A stretch of 58,746 nt of DNA, filler included, from Circinaria calcarea (Eukaryota): the NCBI GenBank assembly GCA_051942165.1. It is 8 parts of 8 records of this genome, joined end to end, with 100 filler letters (N's around TTAATTAATTAA, not from the genome) between each part and the next. Parts side by side here need not be neighbours in the genome. Positions count along the whole stretch, not along the records: positions 44,172 to 51,409 come from JAVECS010001378.1; 7 more parts are not named here. One strand, written 5' to 3'. Under the pieces are notes generated by a model. That model did not search any database. It was not told the DNA's origin and was given only the letters and a program-made list of their open reading frames with translations. A program made the position numbers and the translations under genes. Positions 553 through 51,509 of this stretch are shown in pieces. Position 1 is the stretch's first letter, and each line of letters opens with the position of its first letter.

Positions 553-560
553 TTGACTAC
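553..560 (+). promoter_or_regulatory. Putative self-priming primer-binding site
   Basis: TTGACTAC just inside the 5' LTR end is the reverse complement of GTAGTCAA at 402-409, about 43 nt downstream of the TATA box. No TGG-type tRNA PBS is present. Confidence 0.65.
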
Positions 561-583
561 CCTTACTTGGTCAAGTATCAATC

Positions 584-2548
584 ATGTCAGGAGCTCGTTC
601 AACATCTCCAGCTGCATCCGTGGCAGGATCGATGCACGGTGGAACCCAACGTCGAGAAGAGGAAAAGGACCAAGGACCTAAGGTGGAAACCTATTACGGA
701 GATCGTTCAAAGCTACGCTTTTTCCTAGCGCAGTTGAAGGTGTTCTTCGTTCTCAATCGGCGGAAGTACAACAGTGCCACACCTCAGGTATATTACGCAG
801 CAATGTGTCTAAGGGGGGCCGCGTTCGCGTGGTTCGAGCCCTACCTCAACGACAGACTAGGAGGGGAACCGTGTGATCAAGACACCATGAATATCTTCGA
901 CAGTTTTGAGAACTTCGAGGTGGCCATAAAGCAGGTCTTTGGGGTCGCTGACGAAGCCAGGACTGCTGAAAGAATCATACACCAGTTACGACAAAAGGGG
1001 TCAGCAGCCTCATACTGGTCACAGTTTCAGCAGGTCGCATCAAAACTCAGGTGGGAAGACAAGGTGCTTGAAGCAGTGTTCTATACAGGCCTAAAGGACG
1101 AGGTTAAGGAAAAGATGATCAATAACCGACCCACGGAATACCACAGTCTGGTGGAAACCGCAATCAGGATCGATAACGAAATCTACGAACTCAGAAGAGA
1201 AAAAGGAGGACGTGGAGGAGCGTATCGAGGGTACGGAGGATACACCTCGGCAACCAAAGGCAACTTCGGAGATCCAATGGACCTGGATGTCATGCAACAT
1301 GGTCGGGCCTCACGCCCACGGAGACCAAACCGCTTTCAGAAAGGTGCCAAGAACAACGACGAACGAGAGAAACGCAGAAGAGAGAACCTGTGCTATAATT
1401 GTGGAAAATCCGGACATCAGGCCAGAGAGTGCGAGACACGGGCCCAGGGACTGCATATGATGAATGATGATACAGCCGGTATAGTAGCAAAAAAGGCCGA
1501 CACTACTATAGAGAACCTGAAAGAGCAGGAAATCTCAGCACAGAAGGCACTCGCCGCAGCCCAAGGGCAGCTCGACGCACGCGAGGAGGAGTCAGACTGG
1601 ATACAGGTATACCATGAAGACCGACAAAAAGAACTCGACGAGGTGCGAAAGGAGTACGACGAGGAGCAAAGGCAGCTAGACAGGATACAGAACCTGCTAG
1701 TGCGCAAGGAACCAGCCAAAGAAAAGCAAAAAGAGATACCGCACGAGTGGTTATCATGGACAGCTTGCTACGACGACAGGTGCCTCACGCACATTTCCGA
1801 CAAAACGGGATCAGGGTGGTTTCCTCGGAAGCCAAGAACCCAACGACGCAGCAACAAAAACAAGGACCAGGAATCCTTATCCATGATGAACGCACCAATA
1901 GAAGTCTTGGATAACCAGCACGAGGTGGAAATAAGCGATACAGACGAAGAAATTGGAGATCCAGTACGAACCGAAGTACTAGAAATCGAGAAAACTCATA
2001 TCCTACTATCCACGCCGTTGTGGAAGGAAGTTCTATGCGAAACACACTGCGATTTGGGGACTCAACACCATCATGTGGTGTACGATAAGAAGACAGAACC
2101 CAAGTGCTACGCTCGAGAACTCAGGTTGGACTTGTGCCAGGAACAGGACTGCCCGGAGGGACCTGACCTGCACGTCCACCAAGGAAAGACGAATCAGACA
2201 ACAAGCAAAGTACATGTCCCGGAGCAGGTACGACAACGTATCTGGGGAGAAGGAGTCTCGGATTCGGAGAGAGATATGAAAGACGATGGGAAGACACTGG
2301 TGGTTCTACAACTAATCGACAATAGAGTTGATGACGAATTCATCAGCGCAATCTTTGAATGTACGGACATTCATTGCGACATATATTATCAAGAACATCA
2401 GCACGTGTACAACGTCGACCCAGCACAACCAAGGATACCCCTGAAGAGAGGAGCGTTTCAGACCTTGGTGATAGGAAGAAACGTCTGTGATCAGCAACAG
2501 TGTGAGTGGAGAGATGAGCTCCATGTCCACTTTCCAAAAAACGACTAG
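584..2548 (+). CDS. gag: Gag polyprotein (capsid, CCHC zinc knuckle, long Cys/His-rich C-terminal extension)
   Basis: 654-aa ORF; retrotransposon capsid-like region (LRGAAFAWFEP...LRQKGSAASY...FYTGLKDEVK); knuckle CYNCGKSGHQAREC. Confidence 0.93.
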   Translation: MSGARSTSPAASVAGSMHGGTQRREEEKDQGPKVETYYGDRSKLRFFLAQLKVFFVLNRRKYNSATPQVYYAAMCLRGAAFAWFEPYLNDRLGGEPCDQDTMNIFDSFENFEVAIKQVFGVADEARTAERIIHQLRQKGSAASYWSQFQQVASKLRWEDKVLEAVFYTGLKDEVKEKMINNRPTEYHSLVETAIRIDNEIYELRREKGGRGGAYRGYGGYTSATKGNFGDPMDLDVMQHGRASRPRRPNRFQKGAKNNDEREKRRRENLCYNCGKSGHQARECETRAQGLHMMNDDTAGIVAKKADTTIENLKEQEISAQKALAAAQGQLDAREEESDWIQVYHEDRQKELDEVRKEYDEEQRQLDRIQNLLVRKEPAKEKQKEIPHEWLSWTACYDDRCLTHISDKTGSGWFPRKPRTQRRSNKNKDQESLSMMNAPIEVLDNQHEVEISDTDEEIGDPVRTEVLEIEKTHILLSTPLWKEVLCETHCDLGTQHHHVVYDKKTEPKCYARELRLDLCQEQDCPEGPDLHVHQGKTNQTTSKVHVPEQVRQRIWGEGVSDSERDMKDDGKTLVVLQLIDNRVDDEFISAIFECTDIHCDIYYQEHQHVYNVDPAQPRIPLKRGAFQTLVIGRNVCDQQQCEWRDELHVHFPKND

Positions 2549-2590
2549 AGGATAGCCTCGCGAGGCAAGGCTATTCCTCCACGAAGCCTC
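2536..2590 (+). promoter_or_regulatory. -1 programmed ribosomal frameshift signal (slippery heptamer plus stem/pseudoknot)
   Basis: A AAA AAC in the gag frame at 2536-2542; pol is in the -1 frame and open from there. Stem GAGGATAGCCT (2548-2558) / AGGCTATTCCTC (2568-2579); loop GAGGC can pair with GCCTC at 2586-2590. Confidence 0.8.
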
Positions 2591-5500
2591 AGAACATCGA
2601 TATGACCTTTCTACCAACGACTTCGCAGCATATGGTCCTCACGGCCGAGCTGGAAGGAGAAAAGGTACAGGTTATGATCGATTGTGGAGCCAATCGGAGT
2701 TATGTATCAACTCGATTAGGGCAGAAACTGGCGCATAAAAAAGAAGACAAACGACAACCCTATCCACTCACGATGGCCGACGGGACCCCGGTCGACTTCG
2801 ATGGAGGATGGATCAGGAAAGAATTACGACAAGTTCGGTTGCGGATCGAGGATCACACGGAAGTGATTTCGCTCGATATAACGAATCTCAAGTACGATGC
2901 AGTACTCGGCATGGCATGGTTAACGACACATAATCCAATGGTGGATTGGAAGGCAAGAGTTCTCAAATTCCCATGCAGTCACGGGACGAAAACGGGAGAC
3001 AGATCACCTCCAAAGGTACCCTTCGCAAAGGCAATATGGGTGCGACCGCAGGGACGAGTGCTAGCTGGTACTAGTGAAGAGCTCCCCTCGGAATATCAAG
3101 ATTTTGAGGAACTATTCCAGGAGAGGGTCGGAGAGGCCGCTCTGCCTGAGCATAAGCCTTGGGACCATGAAATCCCAATAGAAGAAGGAAAGACTCCAAC
3201 GCATTATGGAGGTCTTATACCACTCTCCAAGAAAGAAGAAGACTTTCTCAAGAATTACATTGAGACACATCTTGAAAAGAAGTTCATACGGCAGTCGACT
3301 TCGCCTATATCTCACGGTGTGTTGTTTGCACCGAAGAAGGACGGAAGTCTACGACCTTGTATCGACTATCGCAAGCTCAATGCGCTTACCAAGAAGAACC
3401 GATATCCACTTCCTAGGATCGACGAACTACAAGATCGATTGTTAGGAGCCAAATGGTTCACGGCTATCGATATTAGGGACGCTTACTATCGAATCCGAAT
3501 GAAAGAAGGAGAGGAGTGGAAAACAGCATTCCGAACCCGCTGGGGTTTATACGAGTACCAGGTTATGCCTTTTGGCTTAACGAATGCACCAGCCTCCTTC
3601 CAAGCACTAATTAACAATACGCTACAAGAATATCTGGACGACTTCGCCTCAGGGTACCTGGACGATATCCTGATATTCTCGAAGACCTATAAGGAGCATG
3701 TGCAACATGTTCGAAAGGTGCTTCAGAAGCTGAAAGAAAGAGATCTTCCAGTAAAACTCAGCAAGTGCGAGTTTCACAAACACAGTATACGCTTCCTGGG
3801 CTATATTGTGTCGGATCAAGGACTATCGCCGGATCCAGAAAAAGTCAGGGCAATCGAGGAATGGCCAGAACCAACGACGGTGAAAGAAGTGCAGGCGCTA
3901 TTAGGAATATTGAACTACTATCGAAGGTTCATTGGAAACTTCTCCCATATAGCTGCCCCACTTACCGCGTTAACAAAGAAAGAAGTTAGGTTCAACTTCG
4001 GGGAGGATTGCAGGAAAGCCTTCAAGGAGCTGAAGCGCCGTCTGACGACAGCGCCGATCCATGCGAACTTCGACCCGGAAAAGGAGGCAGTTCTCGAAAC
4101 CGATGCATCGGACTATGCGATCGGAGCCTGCTTAACGCAGAAAGGGGACGATGGAAGAATGAGACCCATCGCTTATTACTCCAGGAAGATGACAGAGCCA
4201 GAGTTAAACTACGATATACACGACAAGGAATTACTAGCTGTTGTGGAAGCATTCAAGACGTGGAGAGTTTACCTTGAAGGCCTAGCAAAGCCGGTACAAG
4301 TGTACACGGATCACAAGAACCTGCTCTACTGGACGACAACGAAAGACCTCAATAGAAGGCAAGTCAGATGGGCTGAGACGCTAGCATCTTATGACTTTCG
4401 GATAAACCATGTCCGAGGAACTGAAAACGGAAGGGCGGACGCGCTGAGTAGAAGAGCAGATTACGCGGAGGGAACGAAACCGACTCCGGCATCAATACTC
4501 AAGAGAAACGGAGACCAGCTCACATACAAAACACCGATAGTGGCCATACAAGCACAGATGGATATTGAGCTATCCGAAGAACAAAGAAAATCTGTTATCA
4601 AGGAACGACACGACTTGAAGAGCGCAGGCCATCCAGGCATCAGCAAAACGATAGAACTGGTAACACGAGACTTTACGTGGCCAGGAATAAGACAAGATGT
4701 AACGAAGTACATCGAGGAGTGCGACACTTGCGCAAAAGCAAAACACTCAAGACATCGACCATATGGAAAATTGCAATCACCAGCAATGCCCGGAGAGGCA
4801 TGGTCATCGATAGCATTGGACTTCATCACAAAATTGCCAAAATCGGAAGAACCTCTCACAGGTATTAAGTACGATAGCATTTTGGTGATCGTCGACAGAT
4901 TGACGAAGTATGCGCACTTGGTGCCATATCTGGAAGCGTCCAACGCGGAAGACCTGGCATACACATTCACGAAGATAATCATAGCCCAACATGGGATGCC
5001 AGAAGAGATAATATCGGATCGAGACAAACTGTTTACGTCGCAGTTTTGGCAATCGTTGACAGATCAGCTTGGAACGAAACACAAACTATCAACTGCATAT
5101 CATCCGCAGACAGACGGACAGACGGAACGAACGAACCAGACAATCGAACAGTACCTCAGATGCTACCTCAATTATCAGCAAGACAATTGGGTTGAGCTCT
5201 TACCAATGGCACAGTTCGCGTTCAACAATAGCACATCAGTTACAGGAGTGTCGCCATTTTATGCCAATTACGGGAAACATCCGAACATATCGAGGGATCC
5301 AAGAGGGATCAAACCCATCGCTGAAAGAGCTCGAGTGTCAGTGGACAAACTCCAAGAATTACACGAAATGCTACAAGAAGAGTTAGAGTGGATAGCAGAA
5401 AGATCAGCGGTGCAGGCAAATAAGAAAAGATCTGCGGGACCAGATCTGAAAGAGGGGGGGATGGTCTACCTACTCCGAAAAAACATCAAGACAAAACGAC

Positions 5501-5952
5501 CAAGCGACAAATTGGATCATACGAAATTAGGGCCATTCAAGATAAAGAAGAAACTCGGACCAGTCACGGTCGAGTTAGAGATGCCCAAAGGAATGAGGAT
5601 CCACCCAGTATTTCACATATCATTACTGGAACCAGCAAAAGCGAATGCATCACCAGGACCAATCGAGATAGACCGAGAGACGCAAGAACCATTTTATGAA
5701 ATAGAACAGATACTCGGCTATCAAATCAAGAACGACAAACCCCATTACTTGATTCACTGGAAAGGATATCAGCATTCGGAGGATACGTGGGAACCAGAGG
5801 AACATCTTACCCCGACTGCGGTAAGGATATACCATCAGCAGAACCAAGTACCACGTCCCAGTCAATCGACTCCATCACCGGGAGTTCACCAGTCCAGACG
5901 AGATCGGGCTCGGCCAACACGACTTCCTGCTCGTTATCGAGAGGATTCATAA
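2542..5952 (+). CDS. pol: Pol polyprotein (aspartic protease, RT, RNase H, integrase, chromodomain), expressed by frameshift
   Basis: IDCGA protease motif; RT MPFGLTNAP/YLDD; RNase H TDASDYAIG...ELLAVV...TDHKNL; integrase H-H-C-C and DFIT/SDRD/TER; chromodomain YEIEQIL...YLIHWKGY...DTWEPEEHL. No stops. Confidence 0.97.
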   Translation, partial: RLEDSLARQGYSSTKPQNIDMTFLPTTSQHMVLTAELEGEKVQVMIDCGANRSYVSTRLGQKLAHKKEDKRQPYPLTMADGTPVDFDGGWIRKELRQVRLRIEDHTEVISLDITNLKYDAVLGMAWLTTHNPMVDWKARVLKFPCSHGTKTGDRSPPKVPFAKAIWVRPQGRVLAGTSEELPSEYQDFEELFQERVGEAALPEHKPWDHEIPIEEGKTPTHYGGLIPLSKKEEDFLKNYIETHLEKKFIRQSTSPISHGVLFAPKKDGSLRPCIDYRKLNALTKKNRYPLPRIDELQDRLLGAKWFTAIDIRDAYYRIRMKEGEEWKTAFRTRWGLYEYQVMPFGLTNAPASFQALINNTLQEYLDDFASGYLDDILIFSKTYKEHVQHVRKVLQKLKERDLPVKLSKCEFHKHSIRFLGYIVSDQGLSPDPEKVRAIEEWPEPTTVKEVQALLGILNYYRRFIGNFSHIAAPLTALTKKEVRFNFGEDCRKAFKELKRRLTTAPIHANFDPEKEAVLETDASDYAIGACLTQKGDDGRMRPIAYYSRKMTEPELNYDIHDKELLAVVEAFKTWRVYLEGLAKPVQVYTDHKNLLYWTTTKDLNRRQVRWAETLASYDFRINHVRGTENGRADALSRRADYAEGTKPTPASILKRNGDQLTYKTPIVAIQAQMDIELSEEQRKSVIKERHDLKSAGHPGISKTIELVTRDFTWPGIRQDVTKYIEECDTCAKAKHSRHRPYGKLQSPAMPGEAWSSIALDFITKLPKSEEPLTGIKYDSILVIVDRLTKYAHLVPYLEASNAEDLAYTFTKIIIAQHGMPEEIISDRDKLFTSQFWQSLTDQLGTKHKLSTAYHPQTDGQTERTNQTIEQYLRCYLNYQQDNWVELLPMAQFAFNNSTSVTGVSPFYANYGKHPNISRDPRGIKPIAERARVSVDKLQELHEMLQEELEWIAERSAVQANKKRSAGPDLKEGGMVYLLRKNIKTKRPSDKLDHTKLGPFKIKKKLGPVTVELEMPKGMRIHPVFHISLLEPAKANASPGPIEIDRETQEPFYEIEQILGYQIKNDKPHYLIHWKGYQHSEDTWEPEEHLTPTAVRIYHQQNQVPRPSQSTPSPGVHQSRRDRARPTRLPARYREDS

Positions 5953-7271: not shown

Positions 7272-7371
7272 NNNNNNNNNNNNNNNNNNNNNNNNNNNNN
7301 NNNNNNNNNNNNNNNTTAATTAATTAANNNNNNNNNNNNNNNNNNNNNNNNNNNNNNNNNNNNNNNNNNNN
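7272..7371. other. Artificial contig linker
   Basis: N run - TTAATTAATTAA - N run, 100 bp; stops in all six frames. Confidence 0.98.
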
Positions 7372-14640: not shown

Positions 14641-14740
14641 NNNNNNNNNNNNNNNNNNNNNNNNNNNNNNNNNNNNNNNNNNNNTTAATTAATTAANNNN
14701 NNNNNNNNNNNNNNNNNNNNNNNNNNNNNNNNNNNNNNNN
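14641..14740. other. Artificial contig linker
   Basis: N run - TTAATTAATTAA - N run. Confidence 0.98.
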
Positions 14741-22006: not shown

Positions 22007-22106
22007 NNNNNNNNNNNNNNNNNNNNNNNNNNNNNNNNNNNNNNNNNNNNTTAATTAATTAANNNNNNNNNNNNNNNNNNNNNNNNNNNNNNNNNNNNNN
22101 NNNNNN
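22007..22106. other. Artificial contig linker
   Basis: N run - TTAATTAATTAA - N run. Confidence 0.98.
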
Positions 22107-29366: not shown

Positions 29367-29466
29367 NNNNNNNNNNNNNNNNNNNNNNNNNNNNNNNNNN
29401 NNNNNNNNNNTTAATTAATTAANNNNNNNNNNNNNNNNNNNNNNNNNNNNNNNNNNNNNNNNNNNN
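29367..29466. other. Artificial contig linker
   Basis: N run - TTAATTAATTAA - N run. Confidence 0.98.
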
Positions 29467-36719: not shown

Positions 36720-36819
36720 NNNNNNNNNNNNNNNNNNNNNNNNNNNNNNNNNNNNNNNNNNNNTTAATTAATTAANNNNNNNNNNNNNNNNNNNNNNNNN
36801 NNNNNNNNNNNNNNNNNNN
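36720..36819. other. Artificial contig linker
   Basis: N run - TTAATTAATTAA - N run. Confidence 0.98.
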
Positions 36820-44071: not shown

Positions 44072-44171
44072 NNNNNNNNNNNNNNNNNNNNNNNNNNNNN
44101 NNNNNNNNNNNNNNNTTAATTAATTAANNNNNNNNNNNNNNNNNNNNNNNNNNNNNNNNNNNNNNNNNNNN
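44072..44171. other. Artificial contig linker
   Basis: N run - TTAATTAATTAA - N run. Confidence 0.98.
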
Positions 44172-44855
44172 ACGCCATTAAGCATATTATCTGAAGTTTT
44201 CTTAACCCTATTAGAATCAATATCTGACGACAAGGGCTGAAAAAACTTTAGCAAAATGGTAAAAATAATGATAAAACTTTATAAACCGTGTAGGATATCT
44301 CTATTTAATTTAGATTCGTTTTAAACTTCTTGGTGAATAGCAGGTATATACCTGCTAAGATGTATTATTATAATAGACCTCTTTTTAGTTTGAATATGAT
44401 CTTACTGATCTATCTGTGAAGATTGGTAACTTTTGTGGATTAAAAGATCTGCTTATTATTTAAAGAAAAGGTTGAAAGGTTCTTTCTCTTCCCGCGAAGA
44501 AGTTTTCTTAACGAAAAAGGTTTCGAGAGATGACGCACTACTAGAGAACCAACCTTAATGGAGAATATACTACGGCGAATCGCCTACTATATTTTATATA
44601 TTTAAGAGGCATTTTATGCCTTTTCACCTCATTTTTGGTTAACTTTACCTTTTTAGATTAAACTTATTTAATCTAATCAAATCTAAAATATTCACAATTT
44701 AGATTTATTAAATGGATATTTAGTACTATTAATATATTTTATTTTTTGCATTGGTTTGTTTTGTTTGTTTTGTTTTTAGACTGTAAACACTATACTAGTT
44801 TAAACTATTTATAAGAGACTAGATAAACCTCTTTTTATTGGCATTATTAATTCTT

Positions 44856-45548
44856 TTATCTTTTACGATTAATATGATATAAAAATCAAACTACTTTACG
44901 TGTTAGACGGAATAAGTTAGGTAAATCTTTCTCTAGATCCTTTTTAATCTCAGATCAGATGCGAATATTAGTACCACATGAGTTTTTAAATTCTTGGTAA
45001 GAACCAAATTCGTCTGAATTATGTTGCTTTCAGATAATTCAGAAAAATCTGCGTTTAGCCTTAGATTTAAAATCTTTTAAAGCAGGATTGTCACTTGTAA
45101 TAGTATGATCCACTCTTTCAGACTGACTAGTTTGAAAGGGAGGATGATTAGAATGTGAACGTCTAGGTCTTTCATTAGACCTATCAGCAGTTAAACGAGA
45201 TGGATCTGGAAGTTCCCAGATATCATGTAAAGATACCTCTAACTTAGGGTAAAACACATCAAATATATCTATAATTAAGGGGCTATTTCATTTTAAACTA
45301 AAAGACCAATAAGAAAAAAGTCCTATAACTGAGATAAGTCCTAGTTAAACGACGGTATTTAACGATATATAAACGAACGGCGAAAGAAAAAAAAAGAAAG
45401 AAAGAACCAAAGTAATAAACAGGATAAGGAAACTCCGAAGAGTGAATAAATTCCGAAGATTAGAAAACCTAATGTGATTGTTTGAATCGTTATTACTATT
45501 GCTATTGTTATTGTTATTGTTATTGTTATTAATGTTATTATTTGTCAT
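44856..45548 (-). pseudogene. Frameshifted mitochondrial ORF (poly-Asn, TM segment, C-terminal KRRFFWIIW...SYQEFK...IWSEIKKDL domain)
   Basis: With TGA=Trp the 45039-45257 ORF extends to TAA at 44856. The N-terminal part (45345-45548) is separated from it by stops or frameshifts. Confidence 0.5.
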
Positions 45549-45710
45549 TATATATTTTATGTTAATTCTATATTTACTGTAAACACAATACTAGTTTAGA
45601 AGTTAAAAGACACGACCCAGTCGAGAAGCTTTTTTTTTATAGAAGTAAAATGAGTGTAGATTTGAAAACAAGTCTAGTGAGTTATATAAAATATTGTCTA
45701 GTTCATTATG

Positions 45711-45783
45711 GGAGGATACCCTGACTTGAACAGGGAACTTACTGTGCCACATACAGTTGTTCTACCTATTGAACTATATCCAC
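45711..45783 (-). tRNA. trnH: mt tRNA-His (GUG)
   Basis: Cloverleaf; anticodon arm ACTGT-ATGTGGC-ACAGT; T-loop GTTCAAGTC. Confidence 0.9.
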
Positions 45784-45889
45784 CTTTATTATCTCAATTA
45801 GTCTCGAGTATTTATTAGACTTTTGTCTAATAAAAATAAAGCCCTTTAGTATTAAGATAAAATATTTTACTCTCTCTCCAAGAGTCATG

Positions 45890-45962
45890 TTATGTTGGAG
45901 TGATTCGAACACCCATAGATAAATACCAAAAATTTAGGACTTACCGATTAGTCAACAACATA
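45890..45962 (-). tRNA. trnQ: mt tRNA-Gln (UUG)
   Basis: Acceptor TATGTTG/CAACATA; anticodon arm TAAAT-TTTTGGT-ATTTA; GTTCGAATC. Confidence 0.92.
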
Positions 45963-46130
45963 TTTATTTATTATTTTTAGCATCTATTAGATTTCTTCTA
46001 AAAAAAATAAGCATTGAAGAAATTACATATTAATAATTTATTATCCCACGATAATTATCATAACATTTATAACACGTTTGAAACAAACAAAAAAAAAATG
46101 TTATATATAAGATGATTAATACTTAATACA

Positions 46131-46814
46131 TTATTTAAATTTAAAATAATATTTATTATTTCATATCGTACCTTTGTTTATATATTTACTAACGTTACTA
46201 GGCGACAATCCCACAAAGACTCCAGTTTCTTTTATAGTTTTAGATGATTTTACTAAATTTAGATTTTTATCGTAAACTAAAACAGGAGCACCTCTTGATC
46301 TTAATCTTAATTTATTTTTAGTTTCGTCACTGACTAAACATTTTATATTTGTTTTGTATAGTCTTTTATAGGATTTACCCCTGTGCATGTCACCAAATTT
46401 TAATTTAATGATGTCTGAGTGTTTATAGCCTGCCATAGATCCCGCCTTTTTATTAATATTTAAAGAAGGAGAATATTTATCCAGATACCATTGTTCTTTT
46501 TCCATTAAAATATTTTTTTCTATTTTAGCATTGCTTATGCTTTTTAATATTTCTAGTATGGTATATTCAATATTATTCCAGCCATATTTATTTATCATGT
46601 TGTAAAATTTGCTGTTGTTTCCTTTGTATATAGAGTATCTATATCTATGCTGTCTAAAGCGCTGCGAAAGATTTTGAGCTGAACCTATGTAAATTTTAGT
46701 CTTATCAGAAATTAACCTATATGCATATATACCTGCATCATTACTTAATATACTTTTATAATTGTCGGGTATGAAGCCCTGTTTGTTTAATTTAATCCAT
46801 TTTAAGTTTTCCAT
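46131..46814 (-). CDS. Free-standing GIY-YIG homing endonuclease with NUMOD-like C-terminal motifs (227 aa, code 4)
   Basis: AGIYAY...KIYIGSAQNLSQRFRQH...EKEQWYL...LNI; GYKHS NUMOD3-like motif. TGA=Trp extends it to ...WNNKYYFKFK*. ATG lies just after the trnL 3' end. Confidence 0.9.
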
Positions 46815-46815
46815 G

Positions 46816-46897
46816 TATAGATAACAAGACTCGAACTTGTACGGCTGAAGCCATTCCATCCTAAGTGGAAATTGTCTACCAATTCCAACATATCTAC
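46816..46897 (-). tRNA. trnL: mt tRNA-Leu (UAG)
   Basis: Anticodon arm TTCCA-CTTAGGA-TGGAA; long variable arm GGCTTCAGCC; GTTCGAGTC. Confidence 0.92.
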
Positions 46898-46926
46898 TTT
46901 TGGAAAAAAAAAATGTAGCACTAATT

Positions 46927-47799
46927 CTAAGGTAAATTTCTTAATTGATCACGTATAGGTTTAGTGTTAGCCATGTCTCAGAGACGGGCTGCGTCGTTAG
47001 CCATACCTGCAAAAACTTTATCATGAAACGTACGATTATGAGCAAAAGATCAATCACGCAATCAATCTTCCATATACTCAGAAAAATATGTTTTACTAGG
47101 AGTTAAATTATTAGAACGTAAAAATAGAAGGTGATCAGCAATCATTCTACCAACAACCTTATTAGATTGCCCGTCAGTACGAAAACCGAGTCAAAGAGGA
47201 TGTTTAAATCCTGCTACTGTTCCCATGTGTACTGGTCTATGCACATAGCTTGCATCAGCGGGAGGTAAAGGATTAGTATTAGGATACAGATTAGGAACAC
47301 TTCCAGGTAATGGGGCGGCAGGAGCAGCGGCAGGAGCAGGTGCATTATTTGTACCAGACCCGCTAGCTGTTGCAGATGTATTACTTCCACCTTGACCCAC
47401 ACCACCAGAAGTATCATCCATAGTCATAACTATTTGACTATAAAGTAAATTACTTATAATATTGAGATGTGGCCTCGGTAATTTGAAAGTAGTTGAAAAT
47501 CAGCCAAGTAATAAGGTAACACTTGTTACAATATCTAAACTGTAATGCACGACTAAGATATGTAAGATTGCTGTTATAATTGCAGGGGTAATTCCTACAC
47601 ATACAAGAATTATAGTGTTTGGTATCCTGTTTCCTTTAATAAAAGTAACAGATATAACGTGTAACACTCCTACAACGCCACATACTATAGGAAAATAATT
47701 AAGCAGACCTAAGTGAGATAATAATTGATACATAGGCAATTTTAAACTTAGATAGAATAAAATTGAGAATAGTAAAGGATATCGTTTGAAATTTAACAT
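46927..47799 (-). CDS. Unknown mitochondrial ORF 'C' (290 aa, code 4): TM helices, G/A/P linker, conserved C-terminal domain
   Basis: ORFs 47500-47799 and 47191-47427 are in the same frame and fuse through TGA=Trp, continuing to TAG at 46927; ends LWDMANTKPIRDQLRNLP. Confidence 0.8.
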
Positions 47800-48125
47800 T
47801 TTTAAAAATTATATTATAAGGGGGTAATTATTTAAAAATAACAGAGAAAAAAATACCACTAAATGATACATAAGTAAGCCAAGCAATAATCACTTAATCA
47901 TAAAAAAAACCGAAAGTGTATAAAAGAAATGGTAACCTAGCGCACAGAAATGAAGTAAGTAACCAGAAAAAAAATCCCAAAATGGCAAAACCATATTATC
48001 TACTTCATAGAAAGGGTGAAATGTATTATCTAACAGGCCCCTATCCCCCCCCCAAAGGGGCAATGTTATAAATAATATAAGAAAATAAAAATGTAATGCG
48101 ATAAATAATATAAGGTATAAACCTA

Positions 48126-48199
48126 TGCTCGAGATAAGATTTGAACTTATAGCCTAAACATCTTCAGAGTTCCGCTCTACCAGATTGAGCTTCTCGAGC
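48126..48199 (-). tRNA. trnF: mt tRNA-Phe (GAA)
   Basis: Acceptor GCTCGAG/CTCGAGC; anticodon loop CTGAAGA; GTTCAAATC. Confidence 0.92.
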
Positions 48200-48230
48200 T
48201 TTTTGCATTAAATCATATATCTCAATACAA

Positions 48231-48302
48231 TGGAGATACCAGGGCTCGATCCTGGGATAACGATATGCAAAATCGTAGTTTTACCAATTAAACTATATCC
48301 CC
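48231..48302 (-). tRNA. trnA: mt tRNA-Ala (UGC)
   Basis: Acceptor GGGGATA/TATCTCC; anticodon arm ACGAT-TTTGCAT-ATCGT. Confidence 0.92.
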
Positions 48303-48305
48303 TTT

Positions 48306-48341
48306 ACTGTACTTAGCAGGTATTTACCTGCTAAGTACAGT
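48306..48341. repeat. Mitochondrial palindromic element
   Basis: 17-bp perfect arms ACTGTACTTAGCAGGTA/TACCTGCTAAGTACAGT; the core recurs as TAGCAGGTATATACCTGCTA at 44338-44357. Confidence 0.85.
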
Positions 48342-48529
48342 TATTTTTAAAATACATACAAATATATATATAATATATAACTAGATTAAAAAAAAAAATA
48401 GTTTTATATGGGAGACTCTCGATTCCTTATTTAAATTATTATATTTTTAGATGAGTCTTAACCTTACTTATATATTAACGTAAATTAAAAAAAAAAATCC
48501 ATCCATCCATCCATCCATCCATCCATCCC

Positions 48530-49339
48530 TTATTGATGCGAATACTATCCAAGCCTTTCTTCAAGGATTAGCCCTGAGGCACGCAAATATCCTTTGAATT
48601 CATTATGGGGTCATATAAGGCATATAATGCGAAAGCTTTCAAATTAGGATTGTTTTCAAACATACAAGGATTAAAAGTACCTTGCCCACTAGATTTTAAT
48701 TTAGCTAACACATTAGCAAAATGAGCCGCGAAAGGTTGGTTTGTATTCAACCCATTAAACCGTTAATAACCCCTGCTAAGTTGATTTGCATCATCGCTAA
48801 TTGTGACATCTACTACTTTATACTTTGGACCAATATTAGTAAAGCTACCGCTTTGGCCTACTTGTAGAGTGACTGGTGTATCTACAATAGGTTGAAGTTT
48901 AGATTGACCATAACCCGGTTGAGCACCACCAGCTTGACCACCAACAGTATGAGCACCACCGACTTGACCTACACCACTAATAGTTAAACTAACCATGTGT
49001 GATATAGATGTCTTGCCATCAACTAATTTAAATCCAGATGTATTATGCATATATGAATATTATGCAGTTATTTCTAGTAATGCTTGTATCATTTTAAATG
49101 CTACTGAATATACTGAACCAATTAAGTAAAAAAAAATTACTTAATATATTTAAATCTAATTATAGTGTAATAAAAAGTAAACTTCGGACACATCATACTA
49201 CAAATATAGTAGTAATTAATATTAATGTTCCAAGAAGAGTAAATTTATTAAGAAATTTACTCTTAAACATTGAAAAGAAAGTCTTTAAGAGTGGCAGACT
49301 TACAAAGTCTGCTGGAGGTTTAGAGGGACTCTTTAAACA
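48530..49339 (-). pseudogene. Degraded paralog 'B' of ORFs A/C, headed by a cox1 3'-tail copy
   Basis: CLKSPSKPPADFVSLPL, then a hydrophobic segment with TAA stops, a G/Q linker, and DDANQLSRGY*RFNGLNTNQPFAAHFANVL. Confidence 0.7.
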
Positions 49340-49341
49340 TC

Positions 49342-50715
49342 TTAAGGAGCATTACGTAGGGAATCTCTTAATGCCTTAGTATTACTAAGATTGTATCATT
49401 TCGGATTTCCGTATTCACCGGAAGGATTCTCAATTAACTTGTATAAATCTCGCTCCTTGGTATATATATGATCCAACACAAAATGTTCATGATTAGGTAA
49501 AAAAAGAAATTTTCCCATTTGTCTGCCACCTAGCTTATAATGGTGATCTAGAGCAGAAGCGATATTACCAGCAAGTGGTTGATTAGTACCATTCGGGTTA
49601 TAACCAGCTTGCGCTTGATTTAAAGGATCATTTATCTGTAAAGGTCCGGTTCTTAAACCAGCTCGTCCTTGATTAGGATCACCTCAGGTGTTACCGGCTA
49701 TATTACCAACATTTGCTGGATGAGGATTATTGGAAGTCCCGGCTAGATTACCAGCATTTGCTGGATTAGCATTATTTGGATAACCGGCTATATTCCCAGC
49801 ATTTGCTGGATTATGATTGTTCATACTACTTGTATATGGTAACATAAAATTACTGCTCTTTTTGGGAGCTAGTTGTGTTGTTTCTAGAGAGCTAGAATCA
49901 TTAATAGTAATTTTGTTATAATCTTTTAATCTATTATAAACAGCTTCTATAAAAACTTTAATATTCGAGAAAAACTTCTTATCTATTTTTCTAAAATGGC
50001 TAGGTATATTAGATATAATATCCCAAAAGAGTTTAATGTCATCTATAAAACTTAGATCTAAAAAAGGTATAATTAAACAATTAAGGATACTTTTTATATA
50101 AGTAACACTTAAGATAGAAAGAGCACTACTTATACCAAATATAACATCATTCTCGATATATATTATGTCAAAATGTGTTTTGAAATATATTCTAATACCA
50201 ACACTAACAAGAAAAGCTAAAACCATACCAATTACAGACTTTCTAGTGCAAATTTTATTTAAAGCCGTTTTAAATACTGTATAGACTCTTTTTATATCTA
50301 TTACAGGAAAAATTTTACTTTGTAGAGGCAAGCTTACAAAGGCATGAGGGTTAGGTGGACTATTTAAACATCACTCTAATGAATTATACGCTCTATTTAA
50401 GATAGTTTGTAGAGAATCACTATAATATTGTGGTGTTAATCTAGGATATCCCCCAAGAGCTCTCCCTTCCGCTAATTGTACATATATTATGTATAAGAAT
50501 GGTGAAATAAACAAAACTATCTTAGCCATTGTTTTTCTTTCTGCTACGGTTACAAAAGCTACAATTAATAGAACAGGGACAGTAACTAACAAGACTTCTA
50601 GGATGGAAATATAAATTGGTAAAACGTATTTTGAAAACACGTATATTATTATTATAAGTAATATAAAAGCAAAAGTTACTTGATTTATAAAATAAAAAGG
50701 TACTAGTTGCGGCAT
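49342..50715 (-). CDS. Chimeric mitochondrial ORF 'A' (457 aa, code 4): atp8 N-term + nad1 N-term + cox1 C-term + unknown TM/repeat/NQP domain
   Basis: MPQLVPFYFINQ...SKYVLP (atp8); ISILEVLLV.VP.LL.VAFVTVAERKTMA (nad1); FLYIIYVQL...[28 protein letters not shown] (cox1 tail). Open through TGA codons to TAA at 49342. Confidence 0.82.
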
Positions 50716-51409
50716 GTTTAGTTTAAAGATTCGAAATGTTAATGCGATCTTTTATGCATTTATATCTTATATAAGATAAGAGTTTTAGAGGAGAAAAAAA
50801 GAGGGGAAGCTTATAAACTTTTCATCATTTATATAATTTGTTTCTAGAAATATATTCGAGAGATAAATAGGATTATATAGTTATATAATCCTGTTTTTAA
50901 GCTAGTTTACATATTATTGTTTAAATAACTGTCTTGTGATTCGAAGAGATAATTTTATATCTTATTCTGCAATTCAACATTAACTTCGTTCGTATCTAAC
51001 ATTACAGATAAGTCCCAAAACACTCAGCTAAAAATTGTGAAGGGTTCTTAAGAACTTTAGTATGTACAACTACTAATCAGAAATCATAGCACCTTTAATA
51101 AGTACAATAAATGTTAAAAACTGCGTACTCTTCATTGGATAAAAATATAAATACAAATACCAAAATAAAGGAAAGAACTCGGGAGTATATCCTCCCTCGA
51201 ATGTACCGTATTAAAATGTGAAATTCTTCCTATACCCCGTGCAATTTTCTTTAAGTTAAAAAACAAAGAAGAAGATAACCTTAGCTTTAAACAAAAACGT
51301 CTTTTGTTCTTCTCTACTAAACCTTAATTTTTATTAAGGTGGCCATCATTTTCGCTATATAAGCGGATTAGTCCAAAACTAGTTATCAACTGGTTGGCAG
51401 TCAGCCAGC

Positions 51410-51509
51410 NNNNNNNNNNNNNNNNNNNNNNNNNNNNNNNNNNNNNNNNNNNNTTAATTAATTAANNNNNNNNNNNNNNNNNNNNNNNNNNNNNNNNNNN
51501 NNNNNNNNN
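51410..51509. other. Artificial contig linker
   Basis: N run - TTAATTAATTAA - N run. Confidence 0.98.

Follow-up and report, generated by a model that had tools for sequence, protein, structure and literature searches.

A chimeric open reading frame (ORF), here called ORF A, lies on a mitochondrial contig (JAVECS010001378.1) of Circinaria calcarea (assembly GCA_051942165.1), within the 58,746-base stretch of DNA that was analysed and that we refer to as the window. Rather than being cox1, ORF A joins codons 1-33 of atp8, codons 4-37 of nad1 and the final 61 codons of cox1 to an accessory sequence, hereafter cargo A. The cargo belongs to a conserved, folded and membrane-anchored protein family whose attachment to host genes is in frame, and the unit made of a cox1 tail and cargo A is bounded by cox1 tails and occurs in filled and empty forms. 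Our preferred explanation, held with moderate confidence, is that an accessory ORF family rides here on the expression of host genes, with a portable cox1 tail providing homology for recombination. The coordinates of all features are collected in Table 1.

Read on the minus strand with translation table 4, in which TGA encodes Trp, ORF A extends from an ATG at 50715 to a TAA at 49342-49344. The initial annotation of this DNA had described a cox1 C-terminus that lacks a stop and runs on for about 325 residues, and this is indeed what is found, the cox1 tail being followed by 324 further codons, those of the cargo, before the TAA. Its description of the locus as a cox1 site had to be abandoned, as the frame starts with atp8 and nad1 pieces and only the last 61 cox1 codons are present. 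Homology to cox1 in the encoded protein (P0001) is confined to residues 73-133, where a full COX1 domain spans about 436 profile positions, and the Pfam COX1 model (PF00115) does not match P0001. At the other end, the fungal ATP8 profile (Fun_ATP-synt_8) covers only positions 1-38 of 48 before the frame enters nad1 sequence; with neither the full A6L profile nor a stop encountered, the atp8 piece is incomplete and is not a functional atp8 gene. The atp8 and nad1 pieces overlap by about two codons (microhomology). In a comparison with 66 other cox1 C-termini, 36 columns are conserved to at least 90%; the cox1 piece departs from the consensus at four of these, a deviation reached by only three of the 66. 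These changes fit relaxed constraint and suit a copy that has lost its function as cox1. Both ORF A and its nearest homologue, P0005, stay open across about 460 codons, and eight of the 21 listed differences between ORF A and its relatives are synonymous, against 22% expected at random, which is a weak sign of constraint.

Straight after the stop of ORF A the DNA resumes with GA-TGT-TTA-AAG-AGT-CCC-TCT-AAA-CCT..., which reads CLKSPSKPPADFVSLPLL at 49339-49286. This is a second, more diverged cox1 tail (tail 2), and its homology begins at the GA of the Trp TGA codon, that is, from within the same Trp codon, as had been noted earlier. A 16-mer common to both tails (GGACTNTTTAAACATC on the plus strand, at 49326-49341 and 50357-50372) has two matches in the window against 0.01 expected, a number that none of 100 shuffles reached; a repeat search aligns 27 nt of the tails at 85% identity with a spacing of 1,031, and the alignment of tail 1 with tail 2 extends over about 50 columns with one 3-nt indel. 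Tail 2 is fused to a decayed paralogue, ORF B, composed of an N-module, a G-rich repeat linker and a truncated copy of the family's C-terminal domain. This fusion, too, had been recognised in the initial annotation, and it is borne out by P0012, residues 155-221 of which align to 49339-49136 across an in-frame stop: the N-module (the first ~68 codons) matches the cox1 extensions of P0012 (65%, E 4e-20) and P0010 (61%, E 8e-19). Later pieces of ORF B follow in another frame at 49059-48763 and, behind a TAA, at 48762-48568. Relatives have GAA in place of the ORF B stop at 48763-48765 and TAA at another codon (48684), and these different stops in different relatives point to independent decay across lineages. 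Cargos A and B are different members of the family, not copies of each other. On its downstream side the ORF B remnant adjoins an (ATCC)8 microsatellite (48497-48528).

No public sequencing run contains the stretch itself (the top share of words was 0.16), and contigs from four runs with relatives at 88-99% identity were aligned to the whole mitochondrial contig, parts left uncovered in these runs not being evidence of absence. Record 12 of run X2 covers 48738-49374 and 49464-49692 and so runs through the stop of ORF A and through tail 2 into ORF B; since it spans the tandem junction, this junction is not peculiar to the present assembly. Record 22 of run X3 proceeds from 48609 to 49325 and jumps to 50357-50446, skipping exactly the 1,031-bp unit of tail and cargo A, and in this 'empty' form a cox1-like end leads directly into ORF B. 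The comparison of empty and filled sites proposed at the outset thus has both of its states among relatives, and a duplicated host 3' end flanking an insert with filled and empty forms is present here, the tails lying 1,031 bp apart. Two successive insertions are a plausible order of events; deletion by recombination between the tails would yield the same empty form, so that the order is not established. Upstream of the replacement tail, where displacement of the kind driven by a homing endonuclease gene (HEG) would leave an intact host gene, there are only 61 cox1 codons with nad1 and atp8 before them, a finding qualified by the want of independent support for the 5' junctions. Contigs of relatives that carry atp8 fit 50618-50799 only, including 84 nt upstream of the ORF A start, and loose contig ends cluster at 50618/50623 and 50523/50525. 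Over cargo A, contigs of X2 and X6 stop fitting at 50378 and continue for just 28 more letters, which is no proof of a different 5' partner. Run X6, an RNA library, holds contigs over parts of cargo A, ORF B, the paralogue P0002 and a GIY-YIG gene.

In one related contig of run X1, positions 50800 and 49263 are linked by 10 other letters. This suggests that the X1 relative has a cox1-tail region immediately ahead of the sequence that precedes atp8, and offers a hint of how the pieces of atp8 and of the cox1 tail may have met.

The two transmembrane (TM) helices of the cargo A N-module are predicted from hydropathy segments (P0001 residues 155-173 and 198-216) and from helices H25-48 and H57-80 of the cargo in its AlphaFold2 (AF2) model. 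The full-cargo model comprises a basic helix, two long hydrophobic helices, another helix, a disordered linker of about 70 residues (pLDDT <50 for cargo residues 134-203) and a compact domain; modelled separately, this 117-residue domain is predicted with high confidence (scores in Table 1). With two TM helices behind the matrix-side C-terminus of Cox1, the modelled domain would probably face the matrix. It is common to ORF A, ORF B (truncated), P0002 and the database proteins P0005, P0022 and P0034. When its profile was searched against 1.84 billion protein representatives, 115 cluster representatives were found at the cut-off of E<=1e-3, 32 of them at E<=1e-10. Of 119 sequences, 107 have the domain ending no more than five residues from the C-terminus; across the 119, the 60 residues preceding it show an abundance of G, N, P, S and A, and a hydrophobic 19-mer lies upstream of it in 47 of the 51 sequences that have more than 100 upstream residues. 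Residues N245, Q246, P247 and N312 are nearly invariant, no acidic or His residue is conserved, and the domain is only mildly basic (median net charge +3).

Pfam finds no nuclease family in P0001, P0002, the ORF B pieces, 55 family members and 12 further relatives, and NCBIfam gives the cargos no family match and no nuclease; the same scans did detect the neighbouring GIY-YIG gene. They agree with the earlier remark that the cargo lacks LAGLIDADG, GIY-YIG and HNH motifs. A PDB sequence search with the domain gave no match (best E-value 0.28), and Foldseek returned 0 PDB matches at E<=1e-3 for the high-confidence domain model. The best VIA-align Z is 3.7, far under the aligner's stated noise range, where an absent match does not prove a different fold; the top rows at this noise level (Z<=3.7) are mostly winged-helix DNA-binding domains and serve as a lead only. 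None of 20 family representatives that were looked up is named or has an NCBI or UniRef source, all coming from ENA or Logan; a full-cargo profile search gave only seven matches, one of them named 'hypothetical protein'; and an ESM Atlas query with the database homologue P0131 gave no usable match. A literature search, with most subscription journals outside it, found no description of the cargo family or of portable cox1-tail cargos. Given the absence of matches in Pfam, NCBIfam, the PDB and the fold searches, together with the invariant N, Q, P and N residues and the mild charge, we treat the cargo as an unannotated protein family rather than as a degenerate homing endonuclease. The suggestion of an unrecognised mobile ORF family thus stands as regards the unannotated family, with its 115 representatives; as regards mobility, the cargo is not recognisable as a nuclease by its sequence, and nothing suggests that it is the mobilising enzyme. 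The TM module behind the tail also appears in cox1 extensions with quite different C-terminal parts (P0007, P0009/P0011 and P0041), as judged from the alignment by eye and with no statistic, which suggests that the module is shared among extensions having unlike C-terminal parts.

The settings of family members were surveyed at the protein level, with a Pfam scan of the 55 longer members among the 115 representatives. Nine of the 55 carry a host-gene domain: a cox1 C-terminus in five (P0034, P0138, P0168, P0178 and P0229, all with the cargo in frame behind it, P0178 holding nearly the entire cox1), cytochrome b in two, nad6 in one and a cox3 N-terminus in one. In P0192 the cob C-terminus is followed by a relic tail (SPAKPFAFLSLPMQS), in P0195 the cargo lies behind nad6, and in P0216 it lies behind a cox3 N-terminus and a cob fragment. 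P0005, which is 57% identical to ORF A over 92% of it, begins with residues 1-77 of ATP synthase subunit a (atp6; E 1.8e-6), followed by a cox1-tail segment and the same cargo; in P0074 a cox1 tail and another cargo follow residues 5-43 of cytochrome b (E 8e-9). Many unrelated C-terminal parts continue from the same ...LPLQS cox1 junction in other genomes, and many of the matches to ORF A carry COX1 and COX2 domains. A search for related loci at the DNA level gave three, of which L001 and L002 are near-identical; L003 was rejected as a bacterial false positive (27% identity). In the metagenome locus L001 (5410-6360, 6361-7221), in which Rfam finds no match, the free-standing member P0146 lies behind a LAGLIDADG ORF in a cox1 intron, between the cox1 blocks ...DIAFHD and TYYVVAHFHY..., and the cox1 of this locus bears another, different Q/S/N-rich extension after ...LPLQS. 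To judge from these sequences, members sit behind gene ends, behind captured gene starts and inside an intron. The proposed association with duplicated gene tails holds in so far as members repeatedly lie next to the ends of host genes and a relic cox1 tail survives in some; it is limited by the tail being recognisable in only eight of the 115 representatives.

Fungal mitochondrial mRNAs rely on gene-specific activators that act at 5' untranslated regions, as described for yeast (PMC9943650). Because of this need, an accessory ORF would require a host frame or a host start, and it would be translated only by continuing the one or capturing the other. The family would thus have no expression signals of its own and would persist by attaching itself in frame to host genes, a kind of expression hitch-hiking, for which two routes may exist: behind the end of a gene, mostly cox1 and otherwise cob or nad6, or behind the captured start of atp6, cob, cox3 or, as here, atp8 and nad1. 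The last ~18 cox1 codons would travel with the cargo because its usual home is the end of cox1. Repeated tails would then serve as homology for recombination, by which a resident unit of tail and cargo B could gain or lose, ahead of it, the 1,031-bp unit of tail and cargo A, and the displaced resident, ORF B, would lose translation and subsequently decay. ORF A would be a secondary product, in which a cassette from a cox1 end became re-attached to an atp8/nad1 leader. A double-strand break in trans, for example via the GIY-YIG gene at 46131-46814, could conceivably start such events.

Several points weigh against this explanation. Its main weakness is that the 5' chimeric junctions of ORF A rest on one draft contig, the atp8|nad1 and nad1|cox1 junctions being unbridged by any listed contig of the four related runs, and separate genuine atp8, nad1 and cox1 genes of the organism were not seen within the window. 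The coverage of parts of ORF A in the RNA library X6 does not prove transcription, since such libraries can contain DNA. The synonymous excess is weak, coming from 21 of 481 differences; intermediates of recombination were not observed, and the empty form could be either ancestral or a deletion; and with a cox1 tail in only eight of 115 representatives and a host-gene domain in nine of 55, most called members are free-standing or fragments.

The same junctions underlie the alternative that survives best, unlikely as we judge it, in which ORF A owes its 5' part to a chimeric assembly and the real locus is an ordinary cox1 3' end with cargo A, a displaced tail and cargo B. Besides the missing bridges at 50618/50623 and 50523/50525, where the atp8 and nad1 contigs of relatives also cease to fit, the short contigs of about 7.3 kb, which come from a draft or metagenome-like assembly, and the extension of the X3 empty form 90 nt into the cox1 piece are as such a chimera would have them. 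The junctions nevertheless share just ~6 nt, too short for a k-mer mis-join, and one frame is kept through all three of them; the cox1 piece has its four changes at conserved positions, as for a non-functional copy; and independent assemblies hold analogous chimeras with atp6, cob and cox3 leaders.

That the cargo is an unrecognised homing-type enzyme, cutting cox1 at EW^CL and inserting itself together with a replacement tail, seems to us improbable. The geometry is HEG-like, with homology starting within a codon, an old tail displaced and filled and empty forms; one family member is found in an intron; and the weak top rows of the fold comparison are mostly winged-helix DNA-binding domains. 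An enzyme of this kind is hard to reconcile with the negative nuclease and Foldseek searches and a best Z far under the noise guide, with near-invariant Asn, Gln and Pro residues where no acidic or His residue is conserved, with a median net charge of just +3, or with two TM helices and a disordered linker of about 70 residues, which are unlike known homing enzymes.

An equally low probability is assigned to the proposal that the extensions benefit the host by serving Cox1 as an accessory or regulatory appendage specific to the lineage, perhaps in cytochrome oxidase assembly, extra copies being duplication debris. The favoured position directly behind the Cox1 C-terminus and the well conserved, confidently folded domain would suit such a role, as would the report (PMC10132202) that the last 15 residues of yeast Cox1 are required for the assembly-feedback control of Cox1 synthesis. 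A beneficial appendage would not be expected to vary in presence between close relatives, to persist as a pseudogene with lesions that differ among relatives (ORF B), to give way elsewhere to many unrelated C-terminal parts after the same ...LPLQS junction, or to occur also joined to cob, nad6, atp6 and cox3 pieces and, once, in an intron. Neutral recombination debris, meaning an accidental tandem duplication of the cox1-extension region in which ORF A is open by chance, is very improbable: fragments and pseudogenes do abound on the contig (ORF B, pieces of genes, repeats), but a 457-codon open frame at ~30% GC would hardly arise by chance, P0005 retains the same open frame at 57% identity, and the two cargos are different family members and not copies.

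The preferred explanation, an accessory family riding on host-gene expression, can be set beside several known systems. Plant mitochondrial ORFs of the cytoplasmic-male-sterility (CMS) type typically consist of 5' pieces of essential genes (atp8, atp6, cox) joined to sequence of unknown origin, contain TM segments and arise from recombination of mitochondrial DNA (mtDNA). ORF A is like them in being a one-frame mosaic of essential-gene pieces and other sequence with TM segments; unlike these plant orphans, its cargo is a conserved folded family present across many fungal mitochondria, the host is a fungus, and it is known from sequence alone. Chimeric ORFs of this CMS type are the subject of two plant studies (PMC11312923, PMC6204043). 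In Endoconidiophora, HEG-flanked partial C-terminal duplications of cob and atp6 have been described (PMC6279837). In both cases the inserted ORFs are flanked by a host-gene 3' end in duplicate, of which the displaced copy, on the downstream side, decays, and the arrangement varies among relatives; unlike the LAGLIDADG and GIY-YIG inserts there, the insert here is a TM-anchored protein without nuclease features, and the upstream 'host gene' is just a relic of 61 codons attached to pieces of atp8 and nad1. The cox1/cox2 fusion of Pleosporales (PMC5626475) likewise has a cox1 frame that continues beyond its normal end into another coding region, although the partner there is essential, whereas here it is a variable accessory ORF, present or absent among close relatives. 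In 'core creep', intron ORFs are fused in frame to the upstream exon (PMC7902536). ORF A is similar in that an ORF without its own expression signals continues a host exon, and P0146 even occupies an intron of cox1, following a LAGLIDADG ORF; it differs in having no intron and no splicing at its locus, where Rfam finds only tRNAs, the fusion being to gene ends or captured starts.

Table 1. Features of the window and of its mitochondrial contig, with positions counted along the window
Feature	Position	Strand	Remarks
Mitochondrial contig, 7,238 bp, holding all features described	44172..51409	(-)	GC ~0.3; spacer-bounded
ORF A (P0001), 457 codons + TAA, 3 TGA=Trp	49342..50715	(-)	atp8 + nad1 + cox1 + cargo A
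atp8 start codon and ~33 codons	50619..50715	(-)	Pfam PF05933, residues 1-38, E 4.9e-14
nad1 5' fragment	50521..50622	(-)	P0001 residues 32-65 = nad1 residues 4-37, 91% identity to P0078
cox1 3' fragment, last 61 codons including tail 1 (50317-50370)	50317..50499	(-)	P0001 residues 73-133
N-module of cargo A: basic amphipathic helix and two predicted TM helices	50068..50253	(-)	
Three 45-nt tandem repeats, disordered linker of cargo A	49694..49828	(-)	encode NPANAGN(I/L)AG-type units
Conserved 117-aa C-terminal domain of cargo A, family-defining	49345..49695	(-)	AlphaFold2 pLDDT 92.9, pTM 0.87
Tail 2, second, more diverged cox1 tail (CLKSPSKPPADFVSLPLL)	49286..49341	(-)	frame +2 relative to ORF A
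ORF B, decayed cargo	48568..49285	(-)	in-frame stops and a frameshift
P0002, third intact paralogue, free-standing, downstream of trnF	46927..47808	(-)	TM helices, G/S/A/P linker, domain ending ...LRNLP
Free-standing intact GIY-YIG homing endonuclease gene	46131..46814	(-)	Pfam PF01541; TIGR01453, E 2.3e-26
Artificial spacers N44-TTAATTAATTAA-N44, identical	7272-7371, 14641-14740, 22007-22106, 29367-29466, 36720-36819, 44072-44171, 51410-51509		

The window is made of eight separate contigs of about 7.3 kb each, their sizes descending along it, and features are not to be read across the spacers between them. This composition, the restriction of the cox1 piece to 61 codons and the third intact paralogue at 46927-47808 had been overlooked in the initial annotation. 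The stretch at 44172-51409 is the sole mitochondrial contig; its five tRNA genes, all on the minus strand, are everything that an Rfam scan detects on it, and its long frames are open only with TGA read as Trp. The other seven contigs have a GC of about 0.5 and nuclear-type genes, among them a retroelement of the gypsy type and a homologue of CDC20 whose closest named relatives are Lecanoromycetes (Lignoscripta atroalba, 90%; Xylographa pallens, 88%). The AT-richer contig at 14741-22006 was considered as a mitochondrial candidate and found not to be mitochondrial. On a nuclear contig, two long overlapping plus-strand frames of 663 and 1,144 aa (557-5952), one gag-like and the other protease-RT-RNaseH-integrase-chromodomain-like, resemble a gypsy-type long-terminal-repeat (LTR) retroelement. 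On the mitochondrial contig, the GIY-YIG gene lies directly downstream of trnL (tRNA-Leu, 46815-46897). Adjoining P0002, a 114-codon hydrophobic frame at 47809-48153 (minus strand) is in the same frame with one stop between, and its start overlaps tRNA-Phe; relatives have several 1-2 nt indels in this region, and these, together with the single separating stop, suggest that P0002 may once have been longer. A perfect hairpin with 17-nt arms (ACTGTACTTAGCAGGTA / TACCTGCTAAGTACAGT) occupies 48306-48341 immediately upstream of tRNA-Ala, and its core recurs at 44338-44359 with 95% identity; the hairpin could represent either a palindromic element of the mitochondrion or a signal for processing. P0004, a 162-codon frame with five TGA=Trp codons at 44856-45344 (minus strand), has no match in Pfam or NCBIfam. 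At the contig edge (51190-51409) the summed contig depth in the RNA-library run X6 is ~795, far above the rest of the contig; Rfam finds nothing there, and an abundant RNA or a conserved gene end may be present.

Accessory DNA in fungal mitochondria is usually attributed to introns, homing endonucleases and plasmid relics. What is described here belongs to the ordinary class of accessory or selfish ORFs that sit at the ends of genes, but its form is unusual, with a nuclease-free new family, recurrent chimeric leaders and a portable tail. For annotation, this is a warning that an apparent 'cox1 3' end' in such genomes may be the relic leader of another gene. A bolder analogy, advanced tentatively and in our own estimate doubtful, is that the units of tail and cargo are enzyme-free selfish mitochondrial cassettes, a fungal counterpart of plant CMS genes, with the tail acting both as recombination site and as functional bait, the latter because it reproduces the C-terminal segment of Cox1 that controls the assembly feedback of Cox1 translation in yeast. 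If true, a membrane-anchored matrix protein with a Cox1-like tail and a novel, possibly nucleic-acid-binding domain could manipulate mitochondrial gene expression or the transmission of mtDNA. Chimeric frames of a CMS-like kind, put together from parts of atp8, atp6, cob, cox3 and cox1, recur in fungi, and the filled/empty polymorphism between repeated cox1 tails makes the mode of spread testable for a widespread, confidently folded and unnamed family that fills the same niches (gene 3' ends, introns and captured starts) without a nuclease signature.

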